DNA of 64,000 bases, from IMG/VR virus record IMGVR_UViG_3300022723_000184, positions 96,001-160,000 of that record, one strand, 5' to 3'. Position numbers and translations under genes: made by a program. Below are positions 2,461-56,302 of the stretch, piece by piece (the first letter of the stretch is position 1; each line of letters opens with the position of its first letter). The notes beneath the pieces are model-generated. The model was given only the letters and a program-made list of their open reading frames with translations. It ran no database searches and had not been told where the DNA came from. Origin of the DNA: a virus (Duplodnaviria; Caudoviricetes).

Positions 2461-4156
2461 GGCCAAGAATTACATCTACACCGACCTGTCCGAGGACGAC
2501 GTCCTCGAAGTGGAGATTGACGGCCAGACGTACAAGGCCGTCAATTTCACGATGTCGTTTGCGCTCAACTCGATCCCCCAGGCCGCGGCCACCCTGGCCA
2601 TCGGCCGGGAAGCTCTGTCTGGCGAGCCGGCGAAGATCGCGGAGACGGCGGCCGAACTGACTTCGATGAAGCCAGTGAAGGTCACGTTCAACGCCGGCGG
2701 CGAGTGGGACTCCGAAGGCACCAAGTGGCCCGGCAAGCAAACGATCTTCGAGGGCTACTTCACCGGGTTTTCGTACAAGAAGCTCTATGGCAAGGTCCAG
2801 GTCGTGGCCAACTTCATCCATTGGCTCGTGGACCTGGGCTTCAGCTCCTGCCTCAACTCTCAGATGCACGTGGGCAACCCGGGCGTCATGCTGGGGCCGG
2901 CCGTCATGTCAGTGCAAATTAACTCGGCGGGCGGCGCAGGTGCCAGTGACAAGAACAGCGCCCTGGTCGCCAACCACATCGGTTACGACCTGATCGCCAA
3001 CAACGTCGAGTCCGATTGGTGGAAGACGATCAAAAGCTATCTGTGTGCACTGGCCGGGGTCTCCGGGTTGGCGACCAGCGCCACTGCTACGTGCGAGGGG
3101 ACCGGCGACATCACGGCGAACGACCGGGCGCTCAGAGCCCTGTCCCGGATTGAGGGAGAGGACCTGGCCGGCGAGTGCTCTCGCGACTACGAGTTCGGCA
3201 AGGCCCTGCCCCTCGAAAGCCGAGGCCAGCGGCAGGTGCCCGATGCCGTGGCGAAGTCTGTGGCCAACTCGTACATGCAGTCCTACTTCAACCAGACGTT
3301 CTGGGACCTGCTGGTTAAGGACCTGCTGCCGAGCTTTGGTGCTGCGGTCATGCCCCTGGTCGACCGGGCGGTGGTCATCGCCGACCTCCCGACCTGGCAG
3401 GGCGTCAGCAACCAGCCCTGGAAAGAGATTGGCCCCGACGAATACGTGGCGATGGAGCAGGACTCGAAGATCCCACAGCCGTTGCGGGGAATCGGCATCT
3501 ACGCTCCGGTCGCCGGTGAGACGAACGTCCAGTCAGTGTCCGGCCCTTACAAGCCGCAACTCGGCGGCTGCTACGTGTCGGACGCCGAGGAGGACTCGGA
3601 CGGCACACTCAAGTACGTGACCGCGCCCCGTTGGTTGTTGGGGGTCCCGTCCGAAGGCCTGTACGCCGGCGCCATGACCGGGAACAAAGAAGAGAAGTCG
3701 ATCAAGTCGGCGACCCACGGCCAAGAGGACAAGATCGACACCCCCGAAGACCCTAGCCCGGTGGATACGTTCGAGACGGTCAACGAGCTGATGGTGCGGT
3801 ACGCCCACTGGCTTTTCACGATGGAATCACTTCGTGGCCGGAGCGCCATCTTCTCTGGTAGACTGAGGTTCGACATCGCCCCGGGGTCCCACCTGAAGAT
3901 CGTGGGCTCACCGGAGCAGTTCCTGGAGACCGACGCCCTGGCCTCCGACGTCTACGGCATGGTCCGTGCGGTCACGATCGGGATCGACATCGAGGCGAGG
4001 GCGGCGGTTACCTCATACGTGCTGTCACACAATCGAAACGAGGCAGAGAACGAGGCCGAGCGGACGAGTATCGAGGAACATCCACTGTTCGGGTCAGCGA
4101 TCGTCAACGGGGCGCCGCTGGTCAAGGCCTTGGACCTGGGGAGCGAAGATGCCTGA
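2432..4156 (+). CDS. Baseplate hub protein (late control D/gp27-like); start may be TTG 2453
   Basis: ~575 aa; C-terminal GRLRFDIAPGSHLKI...GMVRAVTIGID pattern typical of hub proteins; context. Confidence 0.5.
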   Translation: MKHGDRWLAKAKNYIYTDLSEDDVLEVEIDGQTYKAVNFTMSFALNSIPQAAATLAIGREALSGEPAKIAETAAELTSMKPVKVTFNAGGEWDSEGTKWPGKQTIFEGYFTGFSYKKLYGKVQVVANFIHWLVDLGFSSCLNSQMHVGNPGVMLGPAVMSVQINSAGGAGASDKNSALVANHIGYDLIANNVESDWWKTIKSYLCALAGVSGLATSATATCEGTGDITANDRALRALSRIEGEDLAGECSRDYEFGKALPLESRGQRQVPDAVAKSVANSYMQSYFNQTFWDLLVKDLLPSFGAAVMPLVDRAVVIADLPTWQGVSNQPWKEIGPDEYVAMEQDSKIPQPLRGIGIYAPVAGETNVQSVSGPYKPQLGGCYVSDAEEDSDGTLKYVTAPRWLLGVPSEGLYAGAMTGNKEEKSIKSATHGQEDKIDTPEDPSPVDTFETVNELMVRYAHWLFTMESLRGRSAIFSGRLRFDIAPGSHLKIVGSPEQFLETDALASDVYGMVRAVTIGIDIEARAAVTSYVLSHNRNEAENEAERTSIEEHPLFGSAIVNGAPLVKALDLGSEDA

Positions 4157-4874
4157 GACACCCGATATCGATTTCGACCAGGCGTATACGTCGTGGGCCT
4201 CGGACAGGTCTCCGCAGGCCAACGCCACGATCCTGAAGGTTCTCGACCCGGTGATCAGCCAGGCGGTGCAGACACACGTCGGTACGAGCAACCCGCTGCT
4301 CAAGGCCCGGGCCCGGAAGATGACGCTCGGCGCCCTGGGCTCGTTTGACCCGAAGCGGGGCCGGCTCAAGAGCCACTTGTATTCGCAGCTCCAAGGCCTC
4401 AAGCGGCAGCATGCCAAGCAGCAGAGCATCTTCCGGGTGCCCGAGCGGCTGATGTTGGACCGCCGAGGTCTGAAGGCGGCGCAGCAGGAACTGGAAGACG
4501 AACTGGGGCGGGAGCCGACGGACCAGGAGCTGGCGACGCGCACCGGGTTCTCGGTCGACCGGATCTCTCGCATCCGGCAGTTCAGCCCCGCGATGAGCGA
4601 GGGCTTCTTCTCGACGGTGGGCGAGGGCGGCATGGTCCCACAGTCCACGAGCCCGATCAGCCAGCAATCGTCGTGGGTCCAGGTGGTGTACGACGACCTG
4701 GGCCCGCTCGACAAGAAGATCATGGAGTGGACGCTGGGCCTCAATGGCCAACCCCGACTCTCGAACCAGGAGATTGCTTTGAGGCTCAAGAGGTCCCCGG
4801 GCGCCATCAGCCAGCGAAAGGCGCTGATCCAGCAGATGCTTGACGAGGAGCAGGACCTTTCCCCTTTTCTATGA
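4149..4874 (+). CDS. RNA polymerase sigma-70 family factor (FliA/SigF-like)
   Basis: Region 3 motif ELGREPTDQELATRTGFSVDRI; region 4 HTH LSNQEIALRLKRSPGAISQRK; region 2-like helix. Confidence 0.85.
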   Translation: MPETPDIDFDQAYTSWASDRSPQANATILKVLDPVISQAVQTHVGTSNPLLKARARKMTLGALGSFDPKRGRLKSHLYSQLQGLKRQHAKQQSIFRVPERLMLDRRGLKAAQQELEDELGREPTDQELATRTGFSVDRISRIRQFSPAMSEGFFSTVGEGGMVPQSTSPISQQSSWVQVVYDDLGPLDKKIMEWTLGLNGQPRLSNQEIALRLKRSPGAISQRKALIQQMLDEEQDLSPFL

Positions 4875-4882
4875 AACTATGC

Positions 4883-4917
4883 CAGCTCGTCGGCTTAAAA
4901 GCGAGACAAGGCGAGAC
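4883..4917 (+). repeat. Degenerate solitary CRISPR repeat A (sense, upstream of RBS)
   Basis: CAGCTCGTCGGCTTAAAAGCGAGACAAGGCGAGAC resembles repeat CTGCTCATCGGTTTAGAAGATGAGAC; stem CTCGTC/GGCGAG + AC; 31/35 identical to the copy at 33550 (-). Confidence 0.75.
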
Positions 4918-4931
4918 CTCTGAGGTAGACC

Positions 4932-5408
4932 ATGGGTACCGAACCGAAACCACAGTCCAAGGCCGAGATCGACTCGAACTTCGAGGGTCAGATCAAGAAG
5001 CTGCGTGAGCGGGCCAAGGACGAGGCCGACGCGAAGCTGGGCGGCGACAACGCCCAGTGGAACATCCCGGAGCTGGGCGATTGGGACGGCGACCTGTTCG
5101 CGGTCGAGGAGATCAGCGACGCGTTCAAGCGGGAAGAGGCCAACGAGAAGTTCGAGGAGGCGACCAAGGACTCCAGCTCGCCGGGTGTCGCCGGCGACCT
5201 CGGCGTTACCACACTGCAGGTTGACTACTTGGCCTGCATGGACCGGGCCTTCCGGGCCAGGCACACGATGCGACGGCCCCGGACCATGGCCCACATGACC
5301 GGCCGCCGCAAAGGCCACGGCAACGAGCGAGGTACGCTGACCCAGACGGCGTTGGAGTTCGCCCGCAACCTGCTTAAACAGGCCCAGGCGTCGGGAGGTG
5401 GTAGCTGA
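4932..5408 (+). CDS. Hypothetical protein in baseplate module
   Basis: RBS GAGG; coding-like composition; overlaps next start. Confidence 0.6.
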   Translation: MGTEPKPQSKAEIDSNFEGQIKKLRERAKDEADAKLGGDNAQWNIPELGDWDGDLFAVEEISDAFKREEANEKFEEATKDSSSPGVAGDLGVTTLQVDYLACMDRAFRARHTMRRPRTMAHMTGRRKGHGNERGTLTQTALEFARNLLKQAQASGGGS

Positions 5409-5893
5409 TGACCGTGACCGGATCCGTTGCTGCCTACGCCGATCGTCAGATCGACATGCTGGCTTTCCAGAACCCAGGTATCGGGAGCCTGGAACTGGTC
5501 GACTTGATCCTCGTCCCCGACGGCGGCAGCGGGTTCAGCATCGCCGGCATCGCCAAGCTCGCCCAGCGGTTCTTGATCGAGCTGCTGACTGAGCAGGGAT
5601 CGATCCCGTACGACACGGTCCGCGGCTCGACGTTCCTCACCGAGCTTCGGCAGGGTAGGGTGCGTACGACGCCGGCCGCCGAGACCGCGTTCTACCTGGC
5701 GCTGGACCAGGTGAAGCTCCAGCTGCAGCTGGAGGAGTCCGACGACATGCCCGACGACGAACGGTACGGGCGAACGACCCTCGACTCGATCGTGCTGTCG
5801 CCGGCCGATACGGTAAAACTACGACTGACGTTGTTCAGCTTGGCGGGGACCGGCGTGACGCTGTTGCTCCCGATTGAGACTACGCTTGGATAG
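5408..5893 (+). CDS. Baseplate wedge subunit, gp25/GPW-like
   Basis: LAQRFLIELLTEQGSIPYDTVRGSTF motif; size; precedes baseplate J. Confidence 0.65.
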   Translation: MTVTGSVAAYADRQIDMLAFQNPGIGSLELVDLILVPDGGSGFSIAGIAKLAQRFLIELLTEQGSIPYDTVRGSTFLTELRQGRVRTTPAAETAFYLALDQVKLQLQLEESDDMPDDERYGRTTLDSIVLSPADTVKLRLTLFSLAGTGVTLLLPIETTLG

Positions 5894-5922
5894 TGCCAGC
5901 TCGCTGGCGAATAGAGCGAGAC
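5887..5922 (+). repeat. Degenerate solitary CRISPR repeat B (sense, upstream of baseplate J RBS)
   Basis: TAGTGCCAG-CTCGCT-GGCGAATAG-AGCGAG-AC: same 6-bp stem, 9-nt loop and AC tail as the repeat; three compensatory pairs. Confidence 0.75.
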
Positions 5923-5939
5923 GATAAGGCAGGGAAGCC

Positions 5940-7643
5940 ATGACGATTCAGATCACCAACCTGGACGACGTGAACCAAGAGCTTGTCGCGGACAACCTCG
6001 ACGAGATCATCACGCGCCTGCAAGAAGACAACCCATCACTCGACCTCCGGCGAGGCGTCCTCAAGGACCTGCTTGCCGGCTACCACGCGTCGCTGAGCGC
6101 TGCCGAGCAGCAGACGTTGGCCCGGTACCTCAGCGCCCGGTCGCTGCAGCAGATCGAGGCCGATCCGACGCTGGCCGACGAGGGGGTGACCGACGACGTC
6201 CTCTCCAACTACCGGGTCACCCGGCAGCAGGGGGCTACGGCCCAGGGTGAGATCACGATCGTCGTCAGTCAGAACACCACGGTGGTCATCTCCGAGGGAG
6301 CCATCTTCGAGGCCGACGGGCAGCAGTTCGCTAGCGATTCGGTGTTCACGGCCAAGACCGAGGCCGCCCAGATCAACACGTCGACCGACCGCCTGCTTCA
6401 ACAGCGATCGGACGGCAACTGGTTCTTCACCATCACGGTGACCGCGGCCGAAGTCGGGACCGAGGGGAACATCGCCAAAGACACTTTCATGGTGCCGGCC
6501 GTGCCCCCGCCCAACTACGTCACGTCGTTCGCGACCAACGACTTCGTGAGCGGGACCAACACCGAGACCAACACCCAGCTGCTCCAACGATTGCAGGAGG
6601 GGCTCGCGGCCAGGGCCCCGTCCAACCGCACGAACATGAAGGGGATGCTCCGAGAGATCTCCGACGAGGCGTACGCCGGCAACCTGCATAGCTCGATCGT
6701 CGGGTTCGGCGACGAGGAGATGCTCCGTGACCAGCACACGATCTGGCCCGGCAGCCTGGGCGGGCGCTCCGACTGGTACATTCGCACGGTCGAGCAGCTG
6801 TTCCGGCTGACGCTGCAGCGGGAAGCCACGCTCGTCCAGATCGGGACCCGTGGCGAGCTATCGAATAACTGCTCGCCCGGAGGCCCCAACGCCTCGGACA
6901 TCGTAACGGTCTGGCAGTTCGCCCTGGCCCGCGACGACGCCCCCGGTTTCTACGAGATCCGGACGGTACGCCCCCTGGGATTCGATGAGGCCAGCGGCAG
7001 CTTCGAGATCCTGGCCGACATCCGGGGCCTGGACCTGACGGGCGACGGCTTCGTCCCGGACATCGACACCGTGGAGGAAGGGGCGTACAGCCGCTACCAG
7101 ACCACGGTCATCAAGTTCATTGACGACCAGGTTGACCCGACCACGGTCGCGGTCGGGGACACTAGCGCCTACGACGTGTCAGTGGCCATGATGCCCCAGA
7201 TCGGCGACATCCAGGACGACCTGAACACCCGCGACATCCGCAGCTACGGGTCCGACGTCCTGATCAAGGCCCCGGTACCCTGCTTCGTGTCGCTCTCGTT
7301 CACGATCAACAAACAGAACAACGTGCCGGACCCGGACCTCGATGCGATCAAGACGGCGTTGGCCAAAGAGGTCAACACGATTGCGTTCCTAGGCCGGCTG
7401 TACGCTTCGCAGCTGCACGACGTGATCCAAGGCCTGCTCGGAACCACGACCAGCGCCGGCAAGATCGACATGTTCGGTCGCCTGCGTTACCCGGACGGCA
7501 CGACCAAGTACGTCCGTGACTTTGAGGTGCTGGCGATCGACGGGCCGGCCGGGCAAATGGTCAGCCCGAAGACCGTGCAGTTTTATCTGGACGTCGAGGA
7601 CATCTCGATCTCGATCGCGACCAGCGTCCCCGTGCCCTCTTAA
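5940..7643 (+). CDS. Baseplate J-like protein
   Basis: ATAQGEITIV..VVISEGAIFEADGQQF and ITVTAAEVGTEGNI / GTNTETNTQLLQRL motifs of the baseplate J family. Confidence 0.8.
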   Translation: MTIQITNLDDVNQELVADNLDEIITRLQEDNPSLDLRRGVLKDLLAGYHASLSAAEQQTLARYLSARSLQQIEADPTLADEGVTDDVLSNYRVTRQQGATAQGEITIVVSQNTTVVISEGAIFEADGQQFASDSVFTAKTEAAQINTSTDRLLQQRSDGNWFFTITVTAAEVGTEGNIAKDTFMVPAVPPPNYVTSFATNDFVSGTNTETNTQLLQRLQEGLAARAPSNRTNMKGMLREISDEAYAGNLHSSIVGFGDEEMLRDQHTIWPGSLGGRSDWYIRTVEQLFRLTLQREATLVQIGTRGELSNNCSPGGPNASDIVTVWQFALARDDAPGFYEIRTVRPLGFDEASGSFEILADIRGLDLTGDGFVPDIDTVEEGAYSRYQTTVIKFIDDQVDPTTVAVGDTSAYDVSVAMMPQIGDIQDDLNTRDIRSYGSDVLIKAPVPCFVSLSFTINKQNNVPDPDLDAIKTALAKEVNTIAFLGRLYASQLHDVIQGLLGTTTSAGKIDMFGRLRYPDGTTKYVRDFEVLAIDGPAGQMVSPKTVQFYLDVEDISISIATSVPVPS

Positions 7644-7660: not shown

Positions 7661-9211
7661 ATGGCCGACTTCCTCTATCCGACCAACGACTTCGACCGCC
7701 GCAACCGGCTGCTGGCTGAGGTGGCGTCGTTCTGGAACAACGTGTTCGGGCAGCGGGAGTTTGTCCGCGACATCCTGTTCGCCAAGGGTCAGCTGGAGCA
7801 GCAGACGGTTCAGCAGCTGACCGAGCTGTTCGATTCGGTCAGTCGCTTCAAGCTGCCGCCGTTTCATTTAGAGCGATGGTATCTGATCACGCTGCTGGAG
7901 TCTGACCTCAACCAGGGCAAGGCCGCCCAGCTGCTGTACGACGGTGAGGTCGACTACGACCCGACCGGCCCTTTCAAGTACGGGGTCCCCCGACAGCTCA
8001 ATCAGTTCACGTGGGATGCGCCGGCCGAGCTGGTCGACACCGGTGTCCTGGTCAACCGGATCCACGACGCCAGCCTGACGATGACCCGGGGCGTCGACTT
8101 CCTGTTGGAGGACGGGAGCCTGTTCTTCAGGGAGAACCCGTTCGACAACCCGCTGGTCCCGGTCCGCGACATCGTCGTCGGCCAGGAGGTCGTCGACCGG
8201 CAGATCGGTCTGTGGGTCTTCCAGGCCAAGTTTGACTGGGACTACATCTTCGAGCAGTTCGGGTACGTCATCCAGCTGTCGCTGGAGAGCGGCGACGAAT
8301 ACAAGGGCATGATCAACGCGGTGTTCGACGCCCTGGTCGAGGGCACGACCCAGCGGTCGGTCGAGAACGCCTTCGAGGCGATGACCGGCTCCACCCTGGT
8401 CCAGAACCCGACGGAGACCGTCAAGGCGATCGTCGACGAGCCGGGCAGGCAGCTGGTGATCACCGACCAGGTCGTCTACGAGTACAGCGACCTGGTCAGC
8501 GTCATCGTTTCTGTGGGCGACAAGGTCATCGAGGGCCAGGCTCTGGTCGACACGCTCCAGTTCTTCGAGTTCAACCGGGGCCAGTGTCCGACGCAGGAGC
8601 AGTGCCAGGCGGTCGCCTTGGGTCGTGGTTTCCTGGGTCGCGGGTTCTTCGGTGACCTGGTGTTCGAGAACAAGAGCACGCCACTCGTGGTCGAGACCGA
8701 CGACGAGGGGTACACCAAGGTCAGTTGGGAGATCGGCGGGTTCCCGACCGACGTCGTGAAGTTCTTCGACGACCTGCACGCTAACGGGCTTGCCGCCGGC
8801 CAGACGCTGGCCAACCTGCTCGACACCCGGACCAATAAGGTCGGCGAGCCGCAGGCGAGCAACCTACCGACCACAATCAACCCGTTCGAGTTTCTGTGTC
8901 AGAACGTGCTGAGGAACCACGCCTACCTGGCCAAGATCCGGACGGCCGGCTTCGGGCCGGGCGCCGTGGGCATGAACGCCGGAAAGATCCTGAGAAAGGT
9001 ACATCCACCGCAGACTGCTCTAATTATCGCCGCGGAATTGGCTCACACGGACGATCCGATTATCATGGAAGATCCGGGTACGGAGACCGCGCCGGGCTAC
9101 GAGGAGACCGTCTCGACCTACACCGGAATGGTGCAAGCCGAGACGATTTCACCGGATACGGCGATGGACGAGTGCGTGCGGGTCAAGCTGATCTCGGGCC
9201 GCTGCACCTAA
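7661..9211 (+). CDS. Baseplate wedge protein (tail protein I/gp7-like)
   Basis: Follows baseplate J; 516 aa structural-type composition. Confidence 0.45.
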   Translation: MADFLYPTNDFDRRNRLLAEVASFWNNVFGQREFVRDILFAKGQLEQQTVQQLTELFDSVSRFKLPPFHLERWYLITLLESDLNQGKAAQLLYDGEVDYDPTGPFKYGVPRQLNQFTWDAPAELVDTGVLVNRIHDASLTMTRGVDFLLEDGSLFFRENPFDNPLVPVRDIVVGQEVVDRQIGLWVFQAKFDWDYIFEQFGYVIQLSLESGDEYKGMINAVFDALVEGTTQRSVENAFEAMTGSTLVQNPTETVKAIVDEPGRQLVITDQVVYEYSDLVSVIVSVGDKVIEGQALVDTLQFFEFNRGQCPTQEQCQAVALGRGFLGRGFFGDLVFENKSTPLVVETDDEGYTKVSWEIGGFPTDVVKFFDDLHANGLAAGQTLANLLDTRTNKVGEPQASNLPTTINPFEFLCQNVLRNHAYLAKIRTAGFGPGAVGMNAGKILRKVHPPQTALIIAAELAHTDDPIIMEDPGTETAPGYEETVSTYTGMVQAETISPDTAMDECVRVKLISGRCT

Positions 9212-9224
9212 AGGCAGGGAAGCC

Positions 9225-9815
9225 ATGCAAGAAATCATCCTCCCAAACAAGAGCGTCTCTGGTCGGGTCCGCGCCCACGAGGTTCGTGGCGACGTCTGGG
9301 ACCTTCTGACCGCGTGGGACCACAACCAGGTCCTCTACGGCTGGGGGACCGTGGTCGGCACGCTGCTGACCAAGGGCCTGTCCAACTACCGCATCGGTGG
9401 GATGTACCTGGAATACGAGAACGTCGCGGACCCCGACGACCCGGTGTCGGCCCCGACCTTCGACCGGAGCGGCGGCAAGAGCTACTACGACGGCCTGGGC
9501 CTCAGCGCGACCCGCGACTACCTCCGCGTCCCGCTGACCGCCTCGCTCTTGAGCAGCAGCGATGAGACGCTGTTCCCGGACGGCAACGTGATGACGTTCT
9601 TCGCCCAGTCCCAGGGCGTGACGGGGGCCAACGGCAAGGCGTTCAGCGACACGGTCAACTCCAAGATCTACGGAGGGGCCCTGGTCGCTTTCCTGGATGA
9701 GGCGGACGCGGATCAGGATATCGTCTTCAGCCGCTTCTACTTCTCGGTGGCGAACCAGCAGGTGAAGTTGCCCACCTCCCAGATCGGGTTGGAGTGGGAG
9801 ATCACGCTGCAGTAG
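9225..9815 (+). CDS. Tail/baseplate-associated protein
   Basis: Context; 17-nt RBS/start region identical to that of baseplate J. Confidence 0.45.
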   Translation: MQEIILPNKSVSGRVRAHEVRGDVWDLLTAWDHNQVLYGWGTVVGTLLTKGLSNYRIGGMYLEYENVADPDDPVSAPTFDRSGGKSYYDGLGLSATRDYLRVPLTASLLSSSDETLFPDGNVMTFFAQSQGVTGANGKAFSDTVNSKIYGGALVAFLDEADADQDIVFSRFYFSVANQQVKLPTSQIGLEWEITLQ

Positions 9816-9888
9816 CGGCTAGAGTCACACCTTGTAAGCCGGTGCGCTGGCATGGTGACGCTAGTATAGCTAGATAAGGGGCTCAAGG

Positions 9889-28037: not shown

Positions 28038-28138
28038 AGTCACGCCTTTTGAACCGGTATGCCGGCATGTTGACACCAGTACGGCTACCTAAATAAACGT
28101 GTTTTTTGCGTCAAAATACATGCAGGCAAATTAGCCCG

Positions 28139-28174
28139 GTCTCATCTTCTAAACCGATGAGCAGGTATTAAGAT
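28139..28174 (-). CRISPR. Solitary CRISPR repeat C with leader end and -10 box
   Basis: 35/36 identical to the array repeat; preceded on - strand by TATAAT-ACCGAGG, like the array leader TATAAT-GCCGCGG. Confidence 0.92.
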
Positions 28175-33351: not shown

Positions 33352-33545
33352 TGCCAGAGATCAAGTTCCACTTCCAGAAGGGCGGCAAGGTCAACATGGA
33401 GGTCAACGGGGTGAAGGGAGAAGGCTGCCGCACCCTGACCGCCGCGTACCGCGAGAAGATGCTCGGCATGGTGACGTCGGACGAGCCGACTGACGAGATG
33501 TACGAGGCCGAGACGGAAAACGAACAGGAGCACGAGCACGGATGA
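33351..33545 (+). CDS. DUF2997-like small protein
   Basis: GKVNMEVNGVKGEGCRTLT..LG motif. Confidence 0.65.
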   Translation: MPEIKFHFQKGGKVNMEVNGVKGEGCRTLTAAYREKMLGMVTSDEPTDEMYEAETENEQEHEHG

Positions 33546-33549
33546 AGCT

Positions 33550-33588
33550 GTCTCGCCTTGTCTTGCCTTTAAGTCGGCGAGCTGCATT
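33550..33588 (-). repeat. Degenerate solitary repeat F with own -10 box (TAGAAT, 33595-33600)
   Basis: - strand AATGCAG-CTCGCC-GACTTAAAGGCAAGACAA-GGCGAG-AC; 31/35 identical to copy A. Confidence 0.75.
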
Positions 33589-33615
33589 GTCCGTATTCTA
33601 CTCAGGTGAGTCTAG

Positions 33616-35139
33616 ATGAAACTTAAAAAAGCGATTGAGGAAGCGGTCTCTGCCGGCTATGGCGGGATCTGGGTCCGCTCCCCTGAACACGAAGACGCCA
33701 TCCGCCTGATCAGTGACGTGTGCAAAGAGTTCGGCTGGAACATGGCCATGTTCGACCTGGACCGTGGCTTCCGCATCGTTGGTGCGGAGGAGTCCCATGT
33801 CACCGAACCGAGCTTGGGCGCAGCGCTCAAGGCGTCGATCAAGTGGGTCGAGACGGCGGACGACGTGGAGACCGAGGACTCGCAGTACCTGCTGGTCGTT
33901 CGCAACCTTCACTTCAGTCTGAATAACAGCAAGACGATCCAGATCCTGCAGCACGTGATCGAGGAGGGCGCCGCCCTCGGCCTTCACGTGATCGGCCTGA
34001 CGCCTGAGGGCATCAAGCTGCCGCGGGAGCTGGACAATTACTTCTACCCCACGCACCACACGCTTCCGGACATGGGGGAGCTGTACGACCTGGTGCTTGA
34101 GGTGGACGACGAGATCAAGATGCCCGAGAAGGGATCCAAGGACGCTGAGCAGCTTTTGTCGAACGTGACGGGCATGACCCGTATGGCGGCAATGGGCGCC
34201 TACGGCATCTCCCTGGCCCGCCACAACAAGATGGACCCGGAGACGCTCAGCCAGGTCAAGTCCGAGACCATGGAGGCCGGCGGCCTGTTGTCGATCCACG
34301 AGTCCAAGCAGGGCTTCGAGGCGGTGGCCGGCTGCGACCACATCAAGGACTTCCTCAAAACCGGCATCCTCTCGCCGAATAAGACCGACGTCGTTCGGTT
34401 GCGTGCGGTGATGCTGCTGGGCTGGCCGGGCACCGGCAAGTCGTTCCTCACCCAGTGCCTGGGTAAGGAGACCACCCGGCCGACCGTGGAGGTCGACGTG
34501 GGGGCTCTCAAAGGGAGCCTGGTGGGCCAGACCGAGGAGAACACCCGCAGGGCCCTGGCGACACTGGACGCCATGGCCCCGTGCATCGCCTACTTCGACG
34601 AGATCGAGAAAGCGGTCACGACCAACGCCATGGACAGCGGGGCCAGCAGCGGACAGCTGGGGGCCCTTCTGACGTGGCTGAACGACCACACGTCAGACGT
34701 GGTCTGCGTGTTCACCTCGAACGACATCTCGCACCTGCCTCCTGAGTTCCTGCGGGCGGAGCGGATGGACGGGATCTTCTACTTCGGCCGGCCGACGCGT
34801 GAGGCGAAGGACCGGGCGTGGGAAATCTACGAGGCCAAGTTCGGTGTCTCGGGCGAGCGCCCGGACGACACGGACTGGACGCCGGCCGAGATCAAGACCT
34901 GTTGCCGGCTGGCCGCCCTGTTCGACCGGAGCCTGGTCGACTCGGCGAACCAGGTGGTGCCGGTCTATCGGACCAATGGCGAGAAGATCAACGCCCTCGA
35001 AGAGTGGGCCGAGGACCGATGCCTGAGCGCCGACTACCACGGCGTGTTCACGCGGAAGTCCCGTCCCAAGATGATCGAGCGGCCGGGCGGTGGCGAGAAG
35101 CCTCGCCGGAGGGTCCGCCGCAAGGCTGGGACCAAATAA
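33616..35139 (+). CDS. AAA+ ATPase, Ycf46-like
   Basis: Walker A GWPGTGKS; Walker B IAYFDEIEK; SRH TSNDISHLPPEFLRAERMD. Confidence 0.88.
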   Translation: MKLKKAIEEAVSAGYGGIWVRSPEHEDAIRLISDVCKEFGWNMAMFDLDRGFRIVGAEESHVTEPSLGAALKASIKWVETADDVETEDSQYLLVVRNLHFSLNNSKTIQILQHVIEEGAALGLHVIGLTPEGIKLPRELDNYFYPTHHTLPDMGELYDLVLEVDDEIKMPEKGSKDAEQLLSNVTGMTRMAAMGAYGISLARHNKMDPETLSQVKSETMEAGGLLSIHESKQGFEAVAGCDHIKDFLKTGILSPNKTDVVRLRAVMLLGWPGTGKSFLTQCLGKETTRPTVEVDVGALKGSLVGQTEENTRRALATLDAMAPCIAYFDEIEKAVTTNAMDSGASSGQLGALLTWLNDHTSDVVCVFTSNDISHLPPEFLRAERMDGIFYFGRPTREAKDRAWEIYEAKFGVSGERPDDTDWTPAEIKTCCRLAALFDRSLVDSANQVVPVYRTNGEKINALEEWAEDRCLSADYHGVFTRKSRPKMIERPGGGEKPRRRVRRKAGTK

Positions 35140-37568: not shown

Positions 37569-37829
37569 ATGAAGAAAATCATCGAAACAGACGAATCGGA
37601 AGGGCTTGAATCTCTACTCGGCGAGCAAGTCACGCTGTGGTGCGAGTGCTACATCTACGCCGGCAAGTTGATCGGCGTGAACACGCACGATGTGAAGCTC
37701 GCCGACGCAAAGATCGTCTACGAAACCGGTTCGCTCAACGAAGCCGGATTCAAGAATGCTCAGTCGCTCCCTGGCGAATCGTGGTATGTGCGCATCCCTA
37801 AAATCGAATCCTATGGGGTCATGAAATGA
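37569..37829 (+). CDS. Small Sm/LSm-like beta-barrel phage protein
   Basis: GEQVTLWCECYIYAGKLIGVN..VKLADAKIVYETG. Confidence 0.55.
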   Translation: MKKIIETDESEGLESLLGEQVTLWCECYIYAGKLIGVNTHDVKLADAKIVYETGSLNEAGFKNAQSLPGESWYVRIPKIESYGVMK

Positions 37830-38020
37830 GCCTTGGCGCTGGCGGCAGAATGTCGTGGTCGCGGTCGCGGTCGTGGTCGCGGTCGTGGTCGTGGTCGTGG
37901 TCGCGGTCGTGGTCGGGGTCGCGGTCGTGGTCGCGGTCGTGCTCGGGGTCGCGGTCGTGGTCGCGGTCGTGGTCGCGGTCGTGGTCGTGGTCGCGGTCGG
38001 GGAGCGACAACAACCGATAG
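37826..38020 (+). CDS. Ser-Arg/Ser-Trp dipeptide-repeat peptide
   Basis: ATGA overlap with previous gene; stop overlaps next RBS. Confidence 0.55.
   Translation: MSLGAGGRMSWSRSRSWSRSWSWSWSRSWSGSRSWSRSCSGSRSWSRSWSRSWSWSRSGSDNNR
37853..38002 (+). repeat. Hexanucleotide tandem repeat TCG(C/T/G)GG, ~25 units
   Basis: Directly visible 6-nt periodicity. Confidence 0.95.
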
Positions 38021-38034
38021 GAGTGTTTAGACCC

Positions 38035-38454
38035 GTGAAGCACGAAAACCAGTGCAGCTATTCCCGCTGCCGATACGAGTATGAATTGCGGCTGATTTAT
38101 GCCAACGTGCAGCTGTGCAACAAGCACTGGTCCCAGCTCTGCGACATCGAGCTGGACCTGGAAGGCCGCACGGCTGCCAAGGTCCTGCAAGCGGAGCGGG
38201 CCTGCCTCAAGTTCTTCGCCAAGTGCGGATCCCGCAAAGCCAAGCGCCTGCTGGACAAGCTGAACGCAGACCCGGACGCCTACACCCTGCAGCACGTAGG
38301 AACCAGGGGCCTGACCGTCGCGGAATACATCGCGTCGCTCGCCCGCCCCGTGGAAGAGCCTACCCCCGTCGAGGAGGACGAGGCCGATGACTCAGACGAG
38401 TTCGGCGGTATCTCCGGTTACATCGAAGATCCCGCGAGTGGTCCTGTTCTTTGA
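38035..38454 (+). CDS. Hypothetical Cys-containing protein
   Basis: RBS AGGAG; GTG start; acidic tail. Confidence 0.5.
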   Translation: MKHENQCSYSRCRYEYELRLIYANVQLCNKHWSQLCDIELDLEGRTAAKVLQAERACLKFFAKCGSRKAKRLLDKLNADPDAYTLQHVGTRGLTVAEYIASLARPVEEPTPVEEDEADDSDEFGGISGYIEDPASGPVL

Positions 38455-53339: not shown

Positions 53340-53550
53340 CAGACCGTGAGCCCGACCAGCACAGGTTGCAGGAAAGCCGGTCGAGTTGGAGTTCGACGGC
53401 CACGGCGGCCCCGGGTCGGCCCTCGGGGGCTGGCGGATCCTGACCGAGGTCCTCTGATGACCCTGTTCTCGGAGCGGGCCACCCGAAGGGCCTACTGGGC
53501 CCTGGGTGGTCCGGAGAACAACCGCTGCTGGCGGCCGAGTCGCCAACAGG
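53340..53550 (+). ncRNA. Candidate structured leader RNA upstream of cas12m
   Basis: GC-rich non-coding stretch with nested stems TGTTCTC/GAGAACA, GGCCACCC/GGGTGGTC, AGGGCC/GGCCCT. Confidence 0.4.
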
Positions 53551-53575
53551 CTGCTCATCGACAAGAGGATGAGAC
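53551..53575 (+). repeat. Degenerate solitary repeat H in the cas12m 5' UTR
   Basis: CTGCTCATCG-ACAAGAG-GATGAGAC: first 10 and last 8 nt identical to the repeat 3' part; exactly 20 nt before the ATG. Confidence 0.88.
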
Positions 53576-53595: not shown

Positions 53596-55365
53596 ATGGG
53601 ATTCAATAAGGACCCAGAGGCCCGCTGTGTGGTTTACCAGTACGGCGGCAAACATCCGACGGAAAACGAAGACGAAGCGATCAACCAGCTCGCCAAGGCG
53701 AACCGTTTTCGGAACCGGCTCGTTGAGTTGGAGCTACAACGACGTGAAGAATACCACGCTGCGTTCTCGGGTTACGGAGACCTGGCGGAGCCGTCAAATC
53801 AGCTTGAGACGCTCAACGAGCAGCTGACCGCTGCGGTGGCAGAACTTAAGGCGTGGAGACAATTGAACGGCACTCGAAGTCAACACCCGACGCTAACCCC
53901 GCAGATCGTTTCGCTACGGGCTCAGGCTCGCCAGCTACGGACACAGATCAAGTCGATCAAGGAAGCGGCCAAAGGCGATCCTACGGTGCAGGCGGCAATC
54001 GAAAAAGCAAACCAGCAGCACCGAGATCAGACCAAAGCTGCGTACGGCGCTGTAAGAGAATCGAACCCGGAGGCCGAGGACGCCAGAGACCGGCATGGGT
54101 TGTTCTGGGGAACGGCCCTCCTAGTTCAAAGGGCAGCGACACAGTTCCAGAAGGGCCCTCCCCCGAGGTACAAACGTTTCGACGGGACGGGAACTATCGG
54201 CGTGCAGCTGCAGAACGGGATGTCTGTGGAGGATCTGTTCACTCCGGGCGGCAGCGTCTGGATTGACCCCGTTCCTCCGGAGGCCTGGGACCCGCAGACG
54301 CCGAGAGGTCAAAGGCGAAAACTCGCAAGAACGATGCTACACATGCGGATCGGCGGGAAGCCGCAGGCCTGGGTGATTCTAAAGCTACCTGTCACCGTGC
54401 ACAGACCGCTGCCTGCAGGAAAACTTATCAAGTGGGTCACGGTCACTCGGCGTAAGTACGGTTCACAGGCGCGGTGGTATGTAAACGTCACGACGGATAT
54501 CAGGTCTGGTGGCACGCTTCACGATGATGTTGCGGCTGCCGGATTTGTGGGTGTCGACCTGGGTTTCAGGTTGTTCAAGCCCGCAGAAAGCAGCTCAGGC
54601 AAGCGATCGCTCCGAGTGGCTGTATGGGCCGGAGATGACGGGGAGACAGGCGAACTTCGCCTCGACGCGAGGTTTATGTCCTACATCTCAAAGGCCGACG
54701 GTTTGAGGTCGATCCGGGACAAGCGGCTTGATCAGATCAGAGCGGCGCTGCTTCCGTTGTGTGACGAGGCGGGTACGCCGGAGTGGTGGAAAGACGACAC
54801 TCAACACATGGCCAAATGGAGGTCTCCTCGAAAGCTGTATCACTTGCTCCACAAGTGGAAAGACAACAGGTGGGATGGCGACAAAACGCTGTTCGATCTG
54901 TTGGTTAAGTGGGTAGTTCAGGACCGTCACCTCCACGTGTGGGAAGCCAACAATCGCCGAAAAGTAGCGGCTCGTCGCCTGGACATGTACCGGAACCTGG
55001 CGGCCTCTTTGAGGCGCAAGTACGCGGTTATCGGGATCGAAGACATCGATTGGCGGATCTGGAGCAAGTTGGCCCTGCCCGAAGAAGAGGAGACCAAGTC
55101 AAAGAAGTTCCGTGTTCAAAAGAAACATGCGGCGGTCGGTCTGCTTGCAGAGACGCTGTCGAATTGCGGGGCACAGGTTGTACGTTTGGATCCCGCTTAC
55201 ACGACGAAGCGGTGCAACGCCTGCGGCAAGATCACCGAATTTGACGCTGACCGGCACCTGCGACATACGTGCGAACATTGCCATGCGGAGTGGGACCAAG
55301 ACTACAATGCGGCAAAGAACCTGCAAGACATGGCGAGCGGCAACGCCGTAACGCAAACCGCGTAG
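53596..55365 (+). CDS. cas12m: Type V-M CRISPR effector Cas12m-like (589 aa)
   Basis: LFWGT, RYKRFDGTGTIGVQLQ, VHRPLP, KWRSPRKL, EANNRRK motifs as in Cas12m; RuvC D321/E482/D569; CNAC..CEHC zinc finger; adjacent array. Confidence 0.88.
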   Translation: MGFNKDPEARCVVYQYGGKHPTENEDEAINQLAKANRFRNRLVELELQRREEYHAAFSGYGDLAEPSNQLETLNEQLTAAVAELKAWRQLNGTRSQHPTLTPQIVSLRAQARQLRTQIKSIKEAAKGDPTVQAAIEKANQQHRDQTKAAYGAVRESNPEAEDARDRHGLFWGTALLVQRAATQFQKGPPPRYKRFDGTGTIGVQLQNGMSVEDLFTPGGSVWIDPVPPEAWDPQTPRGQRRKLARTMLHMRIGGKPQAWVILKLPVTVHRPLPAGKLIKWVTVTRRKYGSQARWYVNVTTDIRSGGTLHDDVAAAGFVGVDLGFRLFKPAESSSGKRSLRVAVWAGDDGETGELRLDARFMSYISKADGLRSIRDKRLDQIRAALLPLCDEAGTPEWWKDDTQHMAKWRSPRKLYHLLHKWKDNRWDGDKTLFDLLVKWVVQDRHLHVWEANNRRKVAARRLDMYRNLAASLRRKYAVIGIEDIDWRIWSKLALPEEEETKSKKFRVQKKHAAVGLLAETLSNCGAQVVRLDPAYTTKRCNACGKITEFDADRHLRHTCEHCHAEWDQDYNAAKNLQDMASGNAVTQTA

Positions 55366-55502: not shown

Positions 55503-56247
55503 ATCGTAATACCTGCTCATCGGTTTAGAAGATGAGACGCGGCATTGATTGCCTTCTTGAGTTGCTGCTCCAACATCGTAATACCTGCTCATCGGTTTAG
55601 AAGATGAGACATCGCCGCATCGCTGGAAGCGGGCGTGGCGTCGGCGGATCGTAATACCTGCTCATCGGTTTAGAAGATGAGACCTTTCTCTGTGTCCGAG
55701 ATAACGGGGTCACTAATGTCATCGTAATACCTGCTCATCGGTTTGGAAGATGAGACAAGCATCCGAGCAGCCGCTACAAGGACAAGATCGGCATCGTAAT
55801 ACCTGCTCATCGGTTTAGAAGATGAGACTAGTCGGGCAATTGCTCGAACGGCACAGAGATATCGTCATCGTAATACCTGCTCATCGGTTTAGAAGATGAG
55901 ACGCTTACCGGTGGCCGAGGCCAAGGCGCGATGGAGAACATCGTAATACCTGCTCATCGGTTTAGAAGATGAGACACGGTGGATCCGGTCGAGCGGCTGA
56001 TCCTTCACATCATCGTAATACCTGCTCATCGGTTTAGAAGATGAGACCCGGTGATCGACGCGGTCCTCGAGAACGCCGAGGACATCGTAATACCTGCTCA
56101 TCGGTTTAGAAGATGAGACAAGTGGATCAGGTTCTTCTCATCGTAATACCTGCTCATTGGTTTAGAAGATGAGACGCGGACTGCCCCGAGATGCGGCGCC
56201 GGCTGTGGGTAATCGTAATACCTGCTCATCGGTTTGGAAGATGAGAC
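55503..56247 (+). CRISPR. CRISPR array: 11 x 36-nt repeats ATCGTAATACCTGCTCATCGGTTTAGAAGATGAGAC, 10 spacers
   Basis: Repeats start at 55503, 55575, 55648, 55721, 55793, 55867, 55940, 56012, 56084, 56140, 56212; spacers 36-38 nt except spacer 9 (20 nt); 3' hairpin CTCATC/GATGAG + AC. Confidence 0.99.
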
Positions 56248-56302
56248 GAAGATGAAACAGAAGGCGAGACAACGACTTGATCGCTAAGGATGGAGAAAAT
56301 AG

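Follow-up and report, generated by a model that had tools for sequence, protein, structure and literature searches.

What is a hairpin with a doubled 3' arm doing in a gap of 57 nt, with a sigma-factor-like gene on one side and a gene encoding a 158-aa protein on the other, immediately upstream of a start codon? The window, i.e. the whole stretch of 64,000 nt analysed, corresponds to bases 96001-160000 of a single virus record of 201,946 bp (a 202-kb, jumbo phage genome; G+C content about 63%). This phage encodes its own DNA-binding Cas12m and its own CRISPR array, both located inside the window. We find that the segment 4873-4917 derives from the phage's Cas12m repeat: it is a solitary, diverged copy with two 3' arms (element A; Table 1). 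A second unit with the same doubled arm (paralog B) is found elsewhere in the window. We then ask how element A reached its present position, which of the two arms would be used, and what the element may do.

Table 1. Coordinates of element A, its surroundings and the related features (window positions unless stated otherwise)
Feature	Position	Strand	Remarks
Sigma-factor-like gene	3966-4874	+	Sigma70_r3; PHROG sigma factor
TTT	4866-4868	+	directly 5' of the upstream flanking repeat; PAM position in relatives without the insert
Upstream flanking direct repeat CTATGA	4869-4874	+	last Leu codon and TGA stop of the sigma-factor-like gene
Inserted solitary repeat unit A	4875-4917	+	43 nt; absent from 6/6 relatives examined
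GCC, variable base (A), invariant G	4881-4885	+	GCC pairs with loop GGC 4892-4894 (pseudoknot stem)
5' helix arm CTCGTC	4886-4891	+	element A
Arm copy 1 (inner), AAAGCGAGAC	4898-4907	+	5/6 pairs; canonical 8-9-nt loop; ends 24 nt before ATG
Arm copy 2 (outer), AAGGCGAGAC	4908-4917	+	GGCGAG pairs 6/6 (one G.U); 18-nt loop; ends 14 nt before ATG
Guide-position sequence, outer register	4918-4937	+	CTCTGA 4918-4923; GAGG 4922-4925; ATG 4932-4934
Conserved 158-aa gene, baseplate module	4932-5408	+	start ATG 4932-4934
Sister solitary repeat	5887-5922	+	17 nt before the baseplate-J-like gene; absent from relatives
Paralog B	33550-33593	-	same duplicated arm; TAGAAT -10-like box upstream
cas12m	53596-55365	+	589 aa; Cas12f1-like TNB domain
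CRISPR array	55503-56247	+	11 repeats of 36 nt
Solitary unit, stem CCCGCC/GGCGGG	genome 67852-67883 (outside the window)	+	16 nt before a start codon

A solitary member of the phage's own Cas12m repeat family

The 589-aa protein of the phage matches the PDB entry 23vw, "CRISPR-associated DNA-binding protein Cas12m" (E-value 6e-67), and MmCas12m2 (8HHL/8HIO; E-value 1.5e-26). Its RuvC triad is the canonical D-E-D, as in 23vw, whereas MmCas12m2 exhibits H-D-D. Cas12m orthologs, those with a D-E-D triad included, have been reported to bind DNA without cutting it, and to process their own pre-crRNA within the repeat (PMC11013384). The crRNA handle of MmCas12m2 is built of a 6-bp helix and of a second stem, which the 5' segment forms with the loop; its G:A pair and its terminal C are read by His269 and Arg270 (PMC10442227). 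The His-Arg pair reading C(-1) and the G:A pair is conserved in the phage Cas12m. The PAM of MmCas12m2 is 5'-TTN (PMC10442227). Among its four PAM-contacting residues, Tyr141 and Gln197 align to identical residues in the phage protein, Asn156 is not conserved, and the region of Trp152 aligns uncertainly. Protospacers for the array spacers were found neither in GenBank phages nor, for two spacers, in viral contigs, so that the PAM of the phage system is not readable from its targets. Spacer 9 of the array (56120-56139) has just 20 nt; the other spacers have 36-38 nt.

Besides the array, a hairpin scan together with the covariance model R1 (see below) reveals about 17 solitary units on both strands of the genome. 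About half of the family, B included, is antisense and preceded by its own -10-like boxes. Sense units lie 14-20 nt before start codons at A, 5887-5922, 53541-53575 (before cas12m), genome 67857 and 174582. Across 18 distinct family sequences, 99% of the helix cells form standard pairs, and five of the six helix pairs have changed on both sides. When the 3' partners are shifted by 1-3 columns, the pairing falls to 22-47%. Stems seen in the family are CTCATC/GATGAG, CTCGCC/GGCGAG, CTCGCT/AGCGAG, CGCACC/GGTGCG, CATATC/GATATG and CCCGCC/GGCGGG. Covariation is also seen in the pseudoknot-type pairing, in which RCC of the 5' flank faces GGY, the first bases of the loop (GC 13, AU 4). A subfamily made up of element A, paralog B and two further units has stems that differ from the others (CTCGYY).

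Eleven other repeats of the same genome, and neither A nor B, served to build the model R1. It finds A at 4873-4907 with 23.4 bits (E-value about 7e-4 for 404 kb on both strands, with rough calibration) and B with 22.7 bits (E-value about 1e-3); the score of A is among the lowest in the family. The window contains the 10-mer AAGGCGAGAC four times, where 0.19 occurrences are expected; three of the four are at the 3' ends of repeats. The helix-bracketing and pseudoknot features of the scaffold are all present in A: the GCC/GGC pairing, the G at 4885 which precedes the helix and is invariant in every member of the family, and the terminal AC, found at 4906-4907 for the inner arm or at 4916-4917 for the outer arm. 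The fold energies of A are not better than those of shuffled sequences (z from -0.6 to +0.4). Folding energy is thus uninformative here, and the support for A is its family resemblance. The first-pass annotation had described a solitary Cas12m-type repeat, aligned to the array repeat with a 1-nt gap and an A-T to G-C change in the stem, and carrying a duplicated 3' arm that ends 24 or 14 nt before the ATG. On re-reading, the coordinates, the duplication and both distances proved accurate. The alignment is identical to that given by Infernal, the stem change being compensatory, and the type of the repeat is borne out by the R1 match and by the Cas12m gene and the 11-repeat array in the same window.

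Element A shares with the known type V-M scaffolds (MmCas12m2, PMC10442227; GoCas12m and MsCas12m, PMC11013384) the 6-bp helix, the G...A bracket, the terminal C, the pseudoknot between the 5' segment and the loop, a guide position 3' of the handle and the His-Arg pair in the cognate protein. It differs from them in being a single unit outside arrays, inside an mRNA leader, and in its doubled 3' arm, which leads either to an imperfect helix or to an 18-nt loop. The nearest other unit (5887-5922) is about 1 kb away, and cas12m 48.7 kb away.

The 158-aa gene is followed by a 161-aa gene and then by the baseplate-J-like gene. Its product exhibits no Pfam family, no PHROG family and no usable Atlas match. 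Promoter-like or terminator-like sites were not found in 3800-6100, nor Rfam families in 4500-6200. The hairpin of A was also considered as a terminator or promoter, and this was rejected as no such sites were found and no T-run follows the hairpin. Elsewhere in the window, a repeat finder reports a long run of the hexamer GTCGYG at 37828-38037 (11 overlapping 72-nt copies), which is probably a coding repeat.

Insertion at tight gene junctions

Homologues of the 158-aa protein were found in 25 metagenomic relatives, six of which have a readable junction with the upstream gene. The two genes are separated by 8 nt in three of them (L001, L003, L008), by 11 nt in L007 and by 22 nt in L002, and they overlap in L004; the gap is thus 0-22 nt in the relatives against 57 nt here, and none of the six has the repeat. 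In the closest relative, L001 (77% protein identity), the junction reads ...ccgtttCTCTGAggtaattgATG. In the window it reads ...cttttCTATGA, followed by 43 nt and then by CTCTGAggtagaccATG; the segment tttCTCTGAggta...ATG of L001 reappears 3' of element A. The comparison of these two junctions defines the insert as 4875-4917, with a 6-nt direct repeat, CTATGA/CTCTGA, at its flanks. With this arrangement, the upstream stop codon was kept, and the old ribosome-binding site and start were rebuilt.

Paralog B lies in a 66-nt insert (33550-33615) flanked by an 8-nt repeat, ATGAAGCT/ATGAAACT. In two relatives, L258 (69% identity) and L257, the B insert is absent and the DUF2997 gene overlaps the start of the AAA ATPase gene. 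The insertion of B keeps the old start: from ATG 33542, a frame of 25 codons extends across the antisense repeat (33542-33619), and its TGA overlaps the present start of the AAA ATPase gene (ATGA at 33616), which would keep translational coupling. Most of the named homologues of this AAA ATPase (33616-35139) come from Planctomycetota (Rubinisphaera, Rhodopirellula, Phycisphaerales, Pirellulaceae), which may hint at the phylum of the host.

Other units exhibit a similar arrangement. The sister repeat at 5887-5922 is flanked by GATAG/GATAAG behind TTG, and the relatives have 10-12 nt at this place. The cleanest flanking repeat of the family is CACGAA/CACGAA, behind TTT, around the unit at genome 67852-67883. 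For the unit at 9824-9859, a 10-nt match to the start of the next gene was tried as a flanking repeat and set aside as probably due to chance; the relative L259 has a 46-nt spacer without TTN at this site and does not back it.

Neither TnpA (Y1; PF01797) nor Cas1 has a match in the genome, and the flanking direct repeats of the units vary from 5 to 9 nt. These observations suggest that the units may have spread by recombination and not through a transposase. Close DNA or protein relatives were not found in the phage and viral collections, nor was the duplicated-arm motif or the array-type repeat found in viral contigs. Two pattern searches were discarded: a metagenome scan for the hairpin CTCGYC...GGCGAGAC was too permissive (120 matches, all of them high-GC coding noise), and a genome scan for CTCATC...GATGAGAC returned single chance matches with no similarity in the 5' flank.

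The uninserted alleles also reveal what stood at these sites before. In the uninserted relatives of A, TTT directly precedes the sequence that now follows arm 2 in the window; an uninserted allele with CTCTGAGGTAGACC after TTT would be the expected target. The uninserted A site in L001 can be written TTT|CTCTGAGGTA, and the inserted layout is TTT, CTATGA, the insert and then CTCTGAGGTA... The first 19 bases in guide position match L001 at 15/19, with four consecutive mismatches at positions 11-14. The uninserted B site in L258 is TTC|AGCTTCAT..., with 20/23 guide bases matching. In five units (A, B, 5887-5922, genome 67857 and 5244) the upstream flanking repeat stands behind TTN. The probability of this is about 7e-8 at a TT frequency of 3.7%, and about 1e-5 if three registers are allowed for each unit. 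It should be noted that TTN is borrowed here from MmCas12m2, and that Cas12m PAMs vary among orthologs, spanning T-rich to C-rich (PMC11013384).

The duplicated arm and the register of the handle

The cores of A and B are identical at 31/35 positions. On the 3' side this identity breaks off precisely at the end of arm 2, where the inserted DNA also ends in both cases; on the 5' side the identity is lost over a few bases. Arm 2 is identical and intact in A and B. In arm 1, A and B each have a single G-to-A change, not at the same position, and in both cases a pair with the 5' arm is lost: the closing pair in A, and a central pair in B (C.A mismatch). None of the four core differences between A and B breaks the arm-2 helix, the sole change within the helix being C to U with a G.U pair kept. 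Taking arm copy 1 away would turn the unit into a perfect one, with a loop of 8 nt. A single 10-nt tandem duplication that took place before A and B separated is the simplest history suggested by these comparisons. Immediately after the last array repeat (56248-56270), the 3' arm occurs two extra times, as GAAGATGAAAC and then as AGAAGGCGAGAC, and the last of these extra arms is of the A/B type (GGCGAG), not of the array type. Stuttering of the arm at the 3' end of a repeat has thus happened at least two times in this genome.

The two arms allow two registers. In silico, the two folds of the 43-nt element A have -9.5 and -9.1 kcal/mol, i.e. they differ by 0.4 kcal/mol; the arm probabilities are 0.61 vs 0.18 for the isolated element and 0.09 vs 0.18 in a 101-nt context. 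B folds with arm 2 at a probability of 0.99. The pairing between the 5' GCC and the loop GGC has been lost in B. Most likely, the outer (second) arm closes the Cas12m handle, and the inner copy is part of an enlarged loop and in the course of decay. The outer arm is favoured by the boundary of the element, the intact pairing in both copies, the fold of B and the flank adjacent to TTN. The inner arm has in its favour the loops of all 16 other family members, which have 8-9 nt (8 nt in MmCas12m2), and the preference of R1, whose alignment of A uses the inner arm with one deleted base in the 3' arm. Against the outer arm, its 18-nt loop is an outlier in the family and may not fit Cas12m; the apparent decay of arm 1 amounts to two substitutions only. 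In our own estimate, use of the outer arm is somewhat probable, use of the inner arm unlikely, use of neither arm more unlikely, and use of both quite improbable. Should the outer arm close the handle, the ribosome-binding site and the start codon would fall in guide position: GAGG occupies guide positions 5-8 in this long register, and 15-18 in the short one.

Possible roles of element A

We favour, with our confidence evenly divided between this reading and all others, the following course of events. A repeat unit of the phage's own type V-M system entered this lineage as a 43-nt insertion with a 6-nt flanking duplication at the tight junction between the sigma-factor-like gene and the 158-aa gene, the tandem duplication of its 3' arm being acquired before the unit was copied to the second site, B. 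The 5' arm and the outer arm would form the 6-bp helix flanked by G and AC, as read by Cas12m. Having no promoter of its own, A would be transcribed within the operon mRNA; Cas12m would capture this transcript at the handle, and the next 17-20 nt (4918-4937), holding the old junction, the ribosome-binding site and the start codon, would serve as guide. Two mutually compatible consequences may follow. Such a guide matches the PAM-adjacent junction of relatives without the insert, and Cas12m may thus sit on the late operon of a co-infecting relative; in addition, Cas12m bound 14 nt from the start codon may hinder ribosome loading on the transcript itself. In the carrier's own copy the match to the guide is split from TTT, and only five of the first six bases are kept. 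Against this reading, the relatives compared match the guides incompletely, and a Cas12m repressing a baseplate-module gene of the very phage that encodes it would be a cost that is unaccounted for.

A second site for the guide of A in the 202-kb genome, searched with up to 5 mismatches in 20 nt and in both registers, gave nothing that looked non-random, and no convincing self-targets of the solitary guides were found within the phage. Two partial recurrences should be mentioned. The 30 nt after the solitary repeat 28139-28174 (28109-28138, minus strand) recur with 2 mismatches at genome 189126-189155 (minus strand), about 65 kb away and outside the window; this copy follows GAG rather than TTN, and may be a promoter-like repeat or a real target. 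In the guide position of the unit 5887-5922 (5926-5942), 17 bases, AAGGCAGGGAAGCCATG, are identical to 9211-9227, where the gene at 9225 has its ribosome-binding site and start. Nuclease-inactive RNA-guided proteins with a fixed, non-array guide beside a scaffold, as proposed here for A, are known from CreR/crlRNA (bioRxiv 10.1101/2024.12.27.630466) and from the TldR repressors, which derive from TnpB (bioRxiv 10.64898/2026.09.22.753285). The guides of both match a promoter elsewhere in the same genome, but the guide of A does not. Any homing by these repeats would not be driven by breaks, since Cas12m binds without cutting.

Cas12 proteins, Cas12m included, descend from TnpB. By analogy, the solitary repeats may work as "empty-site" elements in the style of TnpB, with a binding-only Cas12m at their centre, a proposal that we consider possible but unlikely. 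In such elements each unit would sit a few bases behind TTN and turn the adjacent phage sequence into a guide for genomes without the insert only, the carrier itself being safe as its PAM is moved away by the insert. In co-infecting relatives, Cas12m would then block the late operons or recombine into them. Element A would be aimed at the sigma/baseplate-module junction, its doubled arm being a tolerated loop expansion. The IS200/IS605 elements with TnpB share the layout of a T-rich motif, an element ending in the scaffold and a guide in the flanking DNA (bioRxiv 10.1101/2023.03.14.532601; PMC10055086). Their guide RNAs match alleles without the element ("empty site"), and the layouts of both A (TTT in L001) and B (TTC in L258) fit this. 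In contrast to the IS200/IS605 family, the phage genome has no TnpA, and its flanking repeats of 5-9 nt have no counterpart in IS200/IS605, which make none.

Element A could also be a functionless remnant of a once-mobile repeat, left to decay as neutral filler after a 10-nt stutter by replication slippage. Its 18-nt loop outside the range of the family, its low R1 score, the loss of the GCC/GGC pairing in B, and the extra arms after the array, which suggest recurrent slippage at this hairpin, are in line with such decay. However, the arm-2 helix is unbroken although A and B differ at 4/35 core positions, and a neutral insert of 49 nt would have persisted at a junction where relatives keep 0-22 nt. 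We regard a mere remnant as improbable. A similar, marginally lower degree of belief is given to an operator at the level of translation or mRNA, with no DNA target: Cas12m would bind the handle in the leader and repress or process the mRNA of the 158-aa gene and of the coupled next gene, and the pattern of TTN and flanking repeats would simply mark places where insertion is tolerated. The sense units 14-20 nt before start codons, that of cas12m itself included, and the processing of pre-crRNA within the repeat by Cas12m orthologs (PMC11013384) agree with this. But the antisense half of the family, B included, is unable to act as leader operators, and the TTN before the flanking repeats is left unexplained; moreover, at junctions of 0-22 nt any tolerated insertion falls near a start codon, so that this spacing is not diagnostic.

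The first-pass annotation had proposed a switch, in which inner-arm and outer-arm hairpins set the register of Cas12m and thereby expose or cover the ribosome-binding site. Its premise of two folds stands insofar as both are possible in silico and close in energy in A, and both arm copies are kept in two paralogs; neither fold, however, beats shuffled sequences. The switch itself is very unlikely, with several points against it. Bistability is absent from B, and thus not conserved; arm 1 is losing pairs in both A and B; arm 2 is the precise end point of both the inserted DNA and the A/B homology; and the ribosome-binding site lies at most 20 nt from the end of the handle in both registers, being clearly exposed in neither. 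The lack of a promoter, terminator or Rfam family here counts against it as well. The least credible role is that of an RNA anti-CRISPR that titrates the Cas12m of a host or a rival: such action is known from viral solitary repeat units (PMC10651486) and the CTCGYY stems of the A/B subfamily could mimic the repeat of another system, but the phage itself encodes the cognate Cas12m and array, A lacks the promoter by which Racrs are typically driven, and the scans of genomes and viruses returned the repeat nowhere, with chance matches or none.

Viral solitary repeat units and Racrs (Faure 2019, cited in PMC10651486; Camara-Wilpert 2023, PMC10651486) are lone repeat mimics in phage intergenic regions, as is A, and A is one of many units in one genome, as they are. 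Racrs mimic the repeat of the host and usually have their own promoter (PMC10651486), whereas A matches an effector and array encoded by the phage and has no promoter. Lone CRISPR repeats in phages have so far been understood as decoys against host immunity; those described here are matched to an effector encoded by the phage, and have been inserted at gene junctions with the flanking phage sequence placed as guide. If Cas12m uses these repeats, the virus would be a natural example of wiring a DNA-binding CRISPR protein into its own transcripts, for fighting relatives or for timing genes. If true, this would reconnect the function of Cas12 with the empty-site logic seen in its TnpB ancestors. 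Elements A and B together provide a natural experiment on how much expansion of the loop is tolerated by a Cas12m handle.
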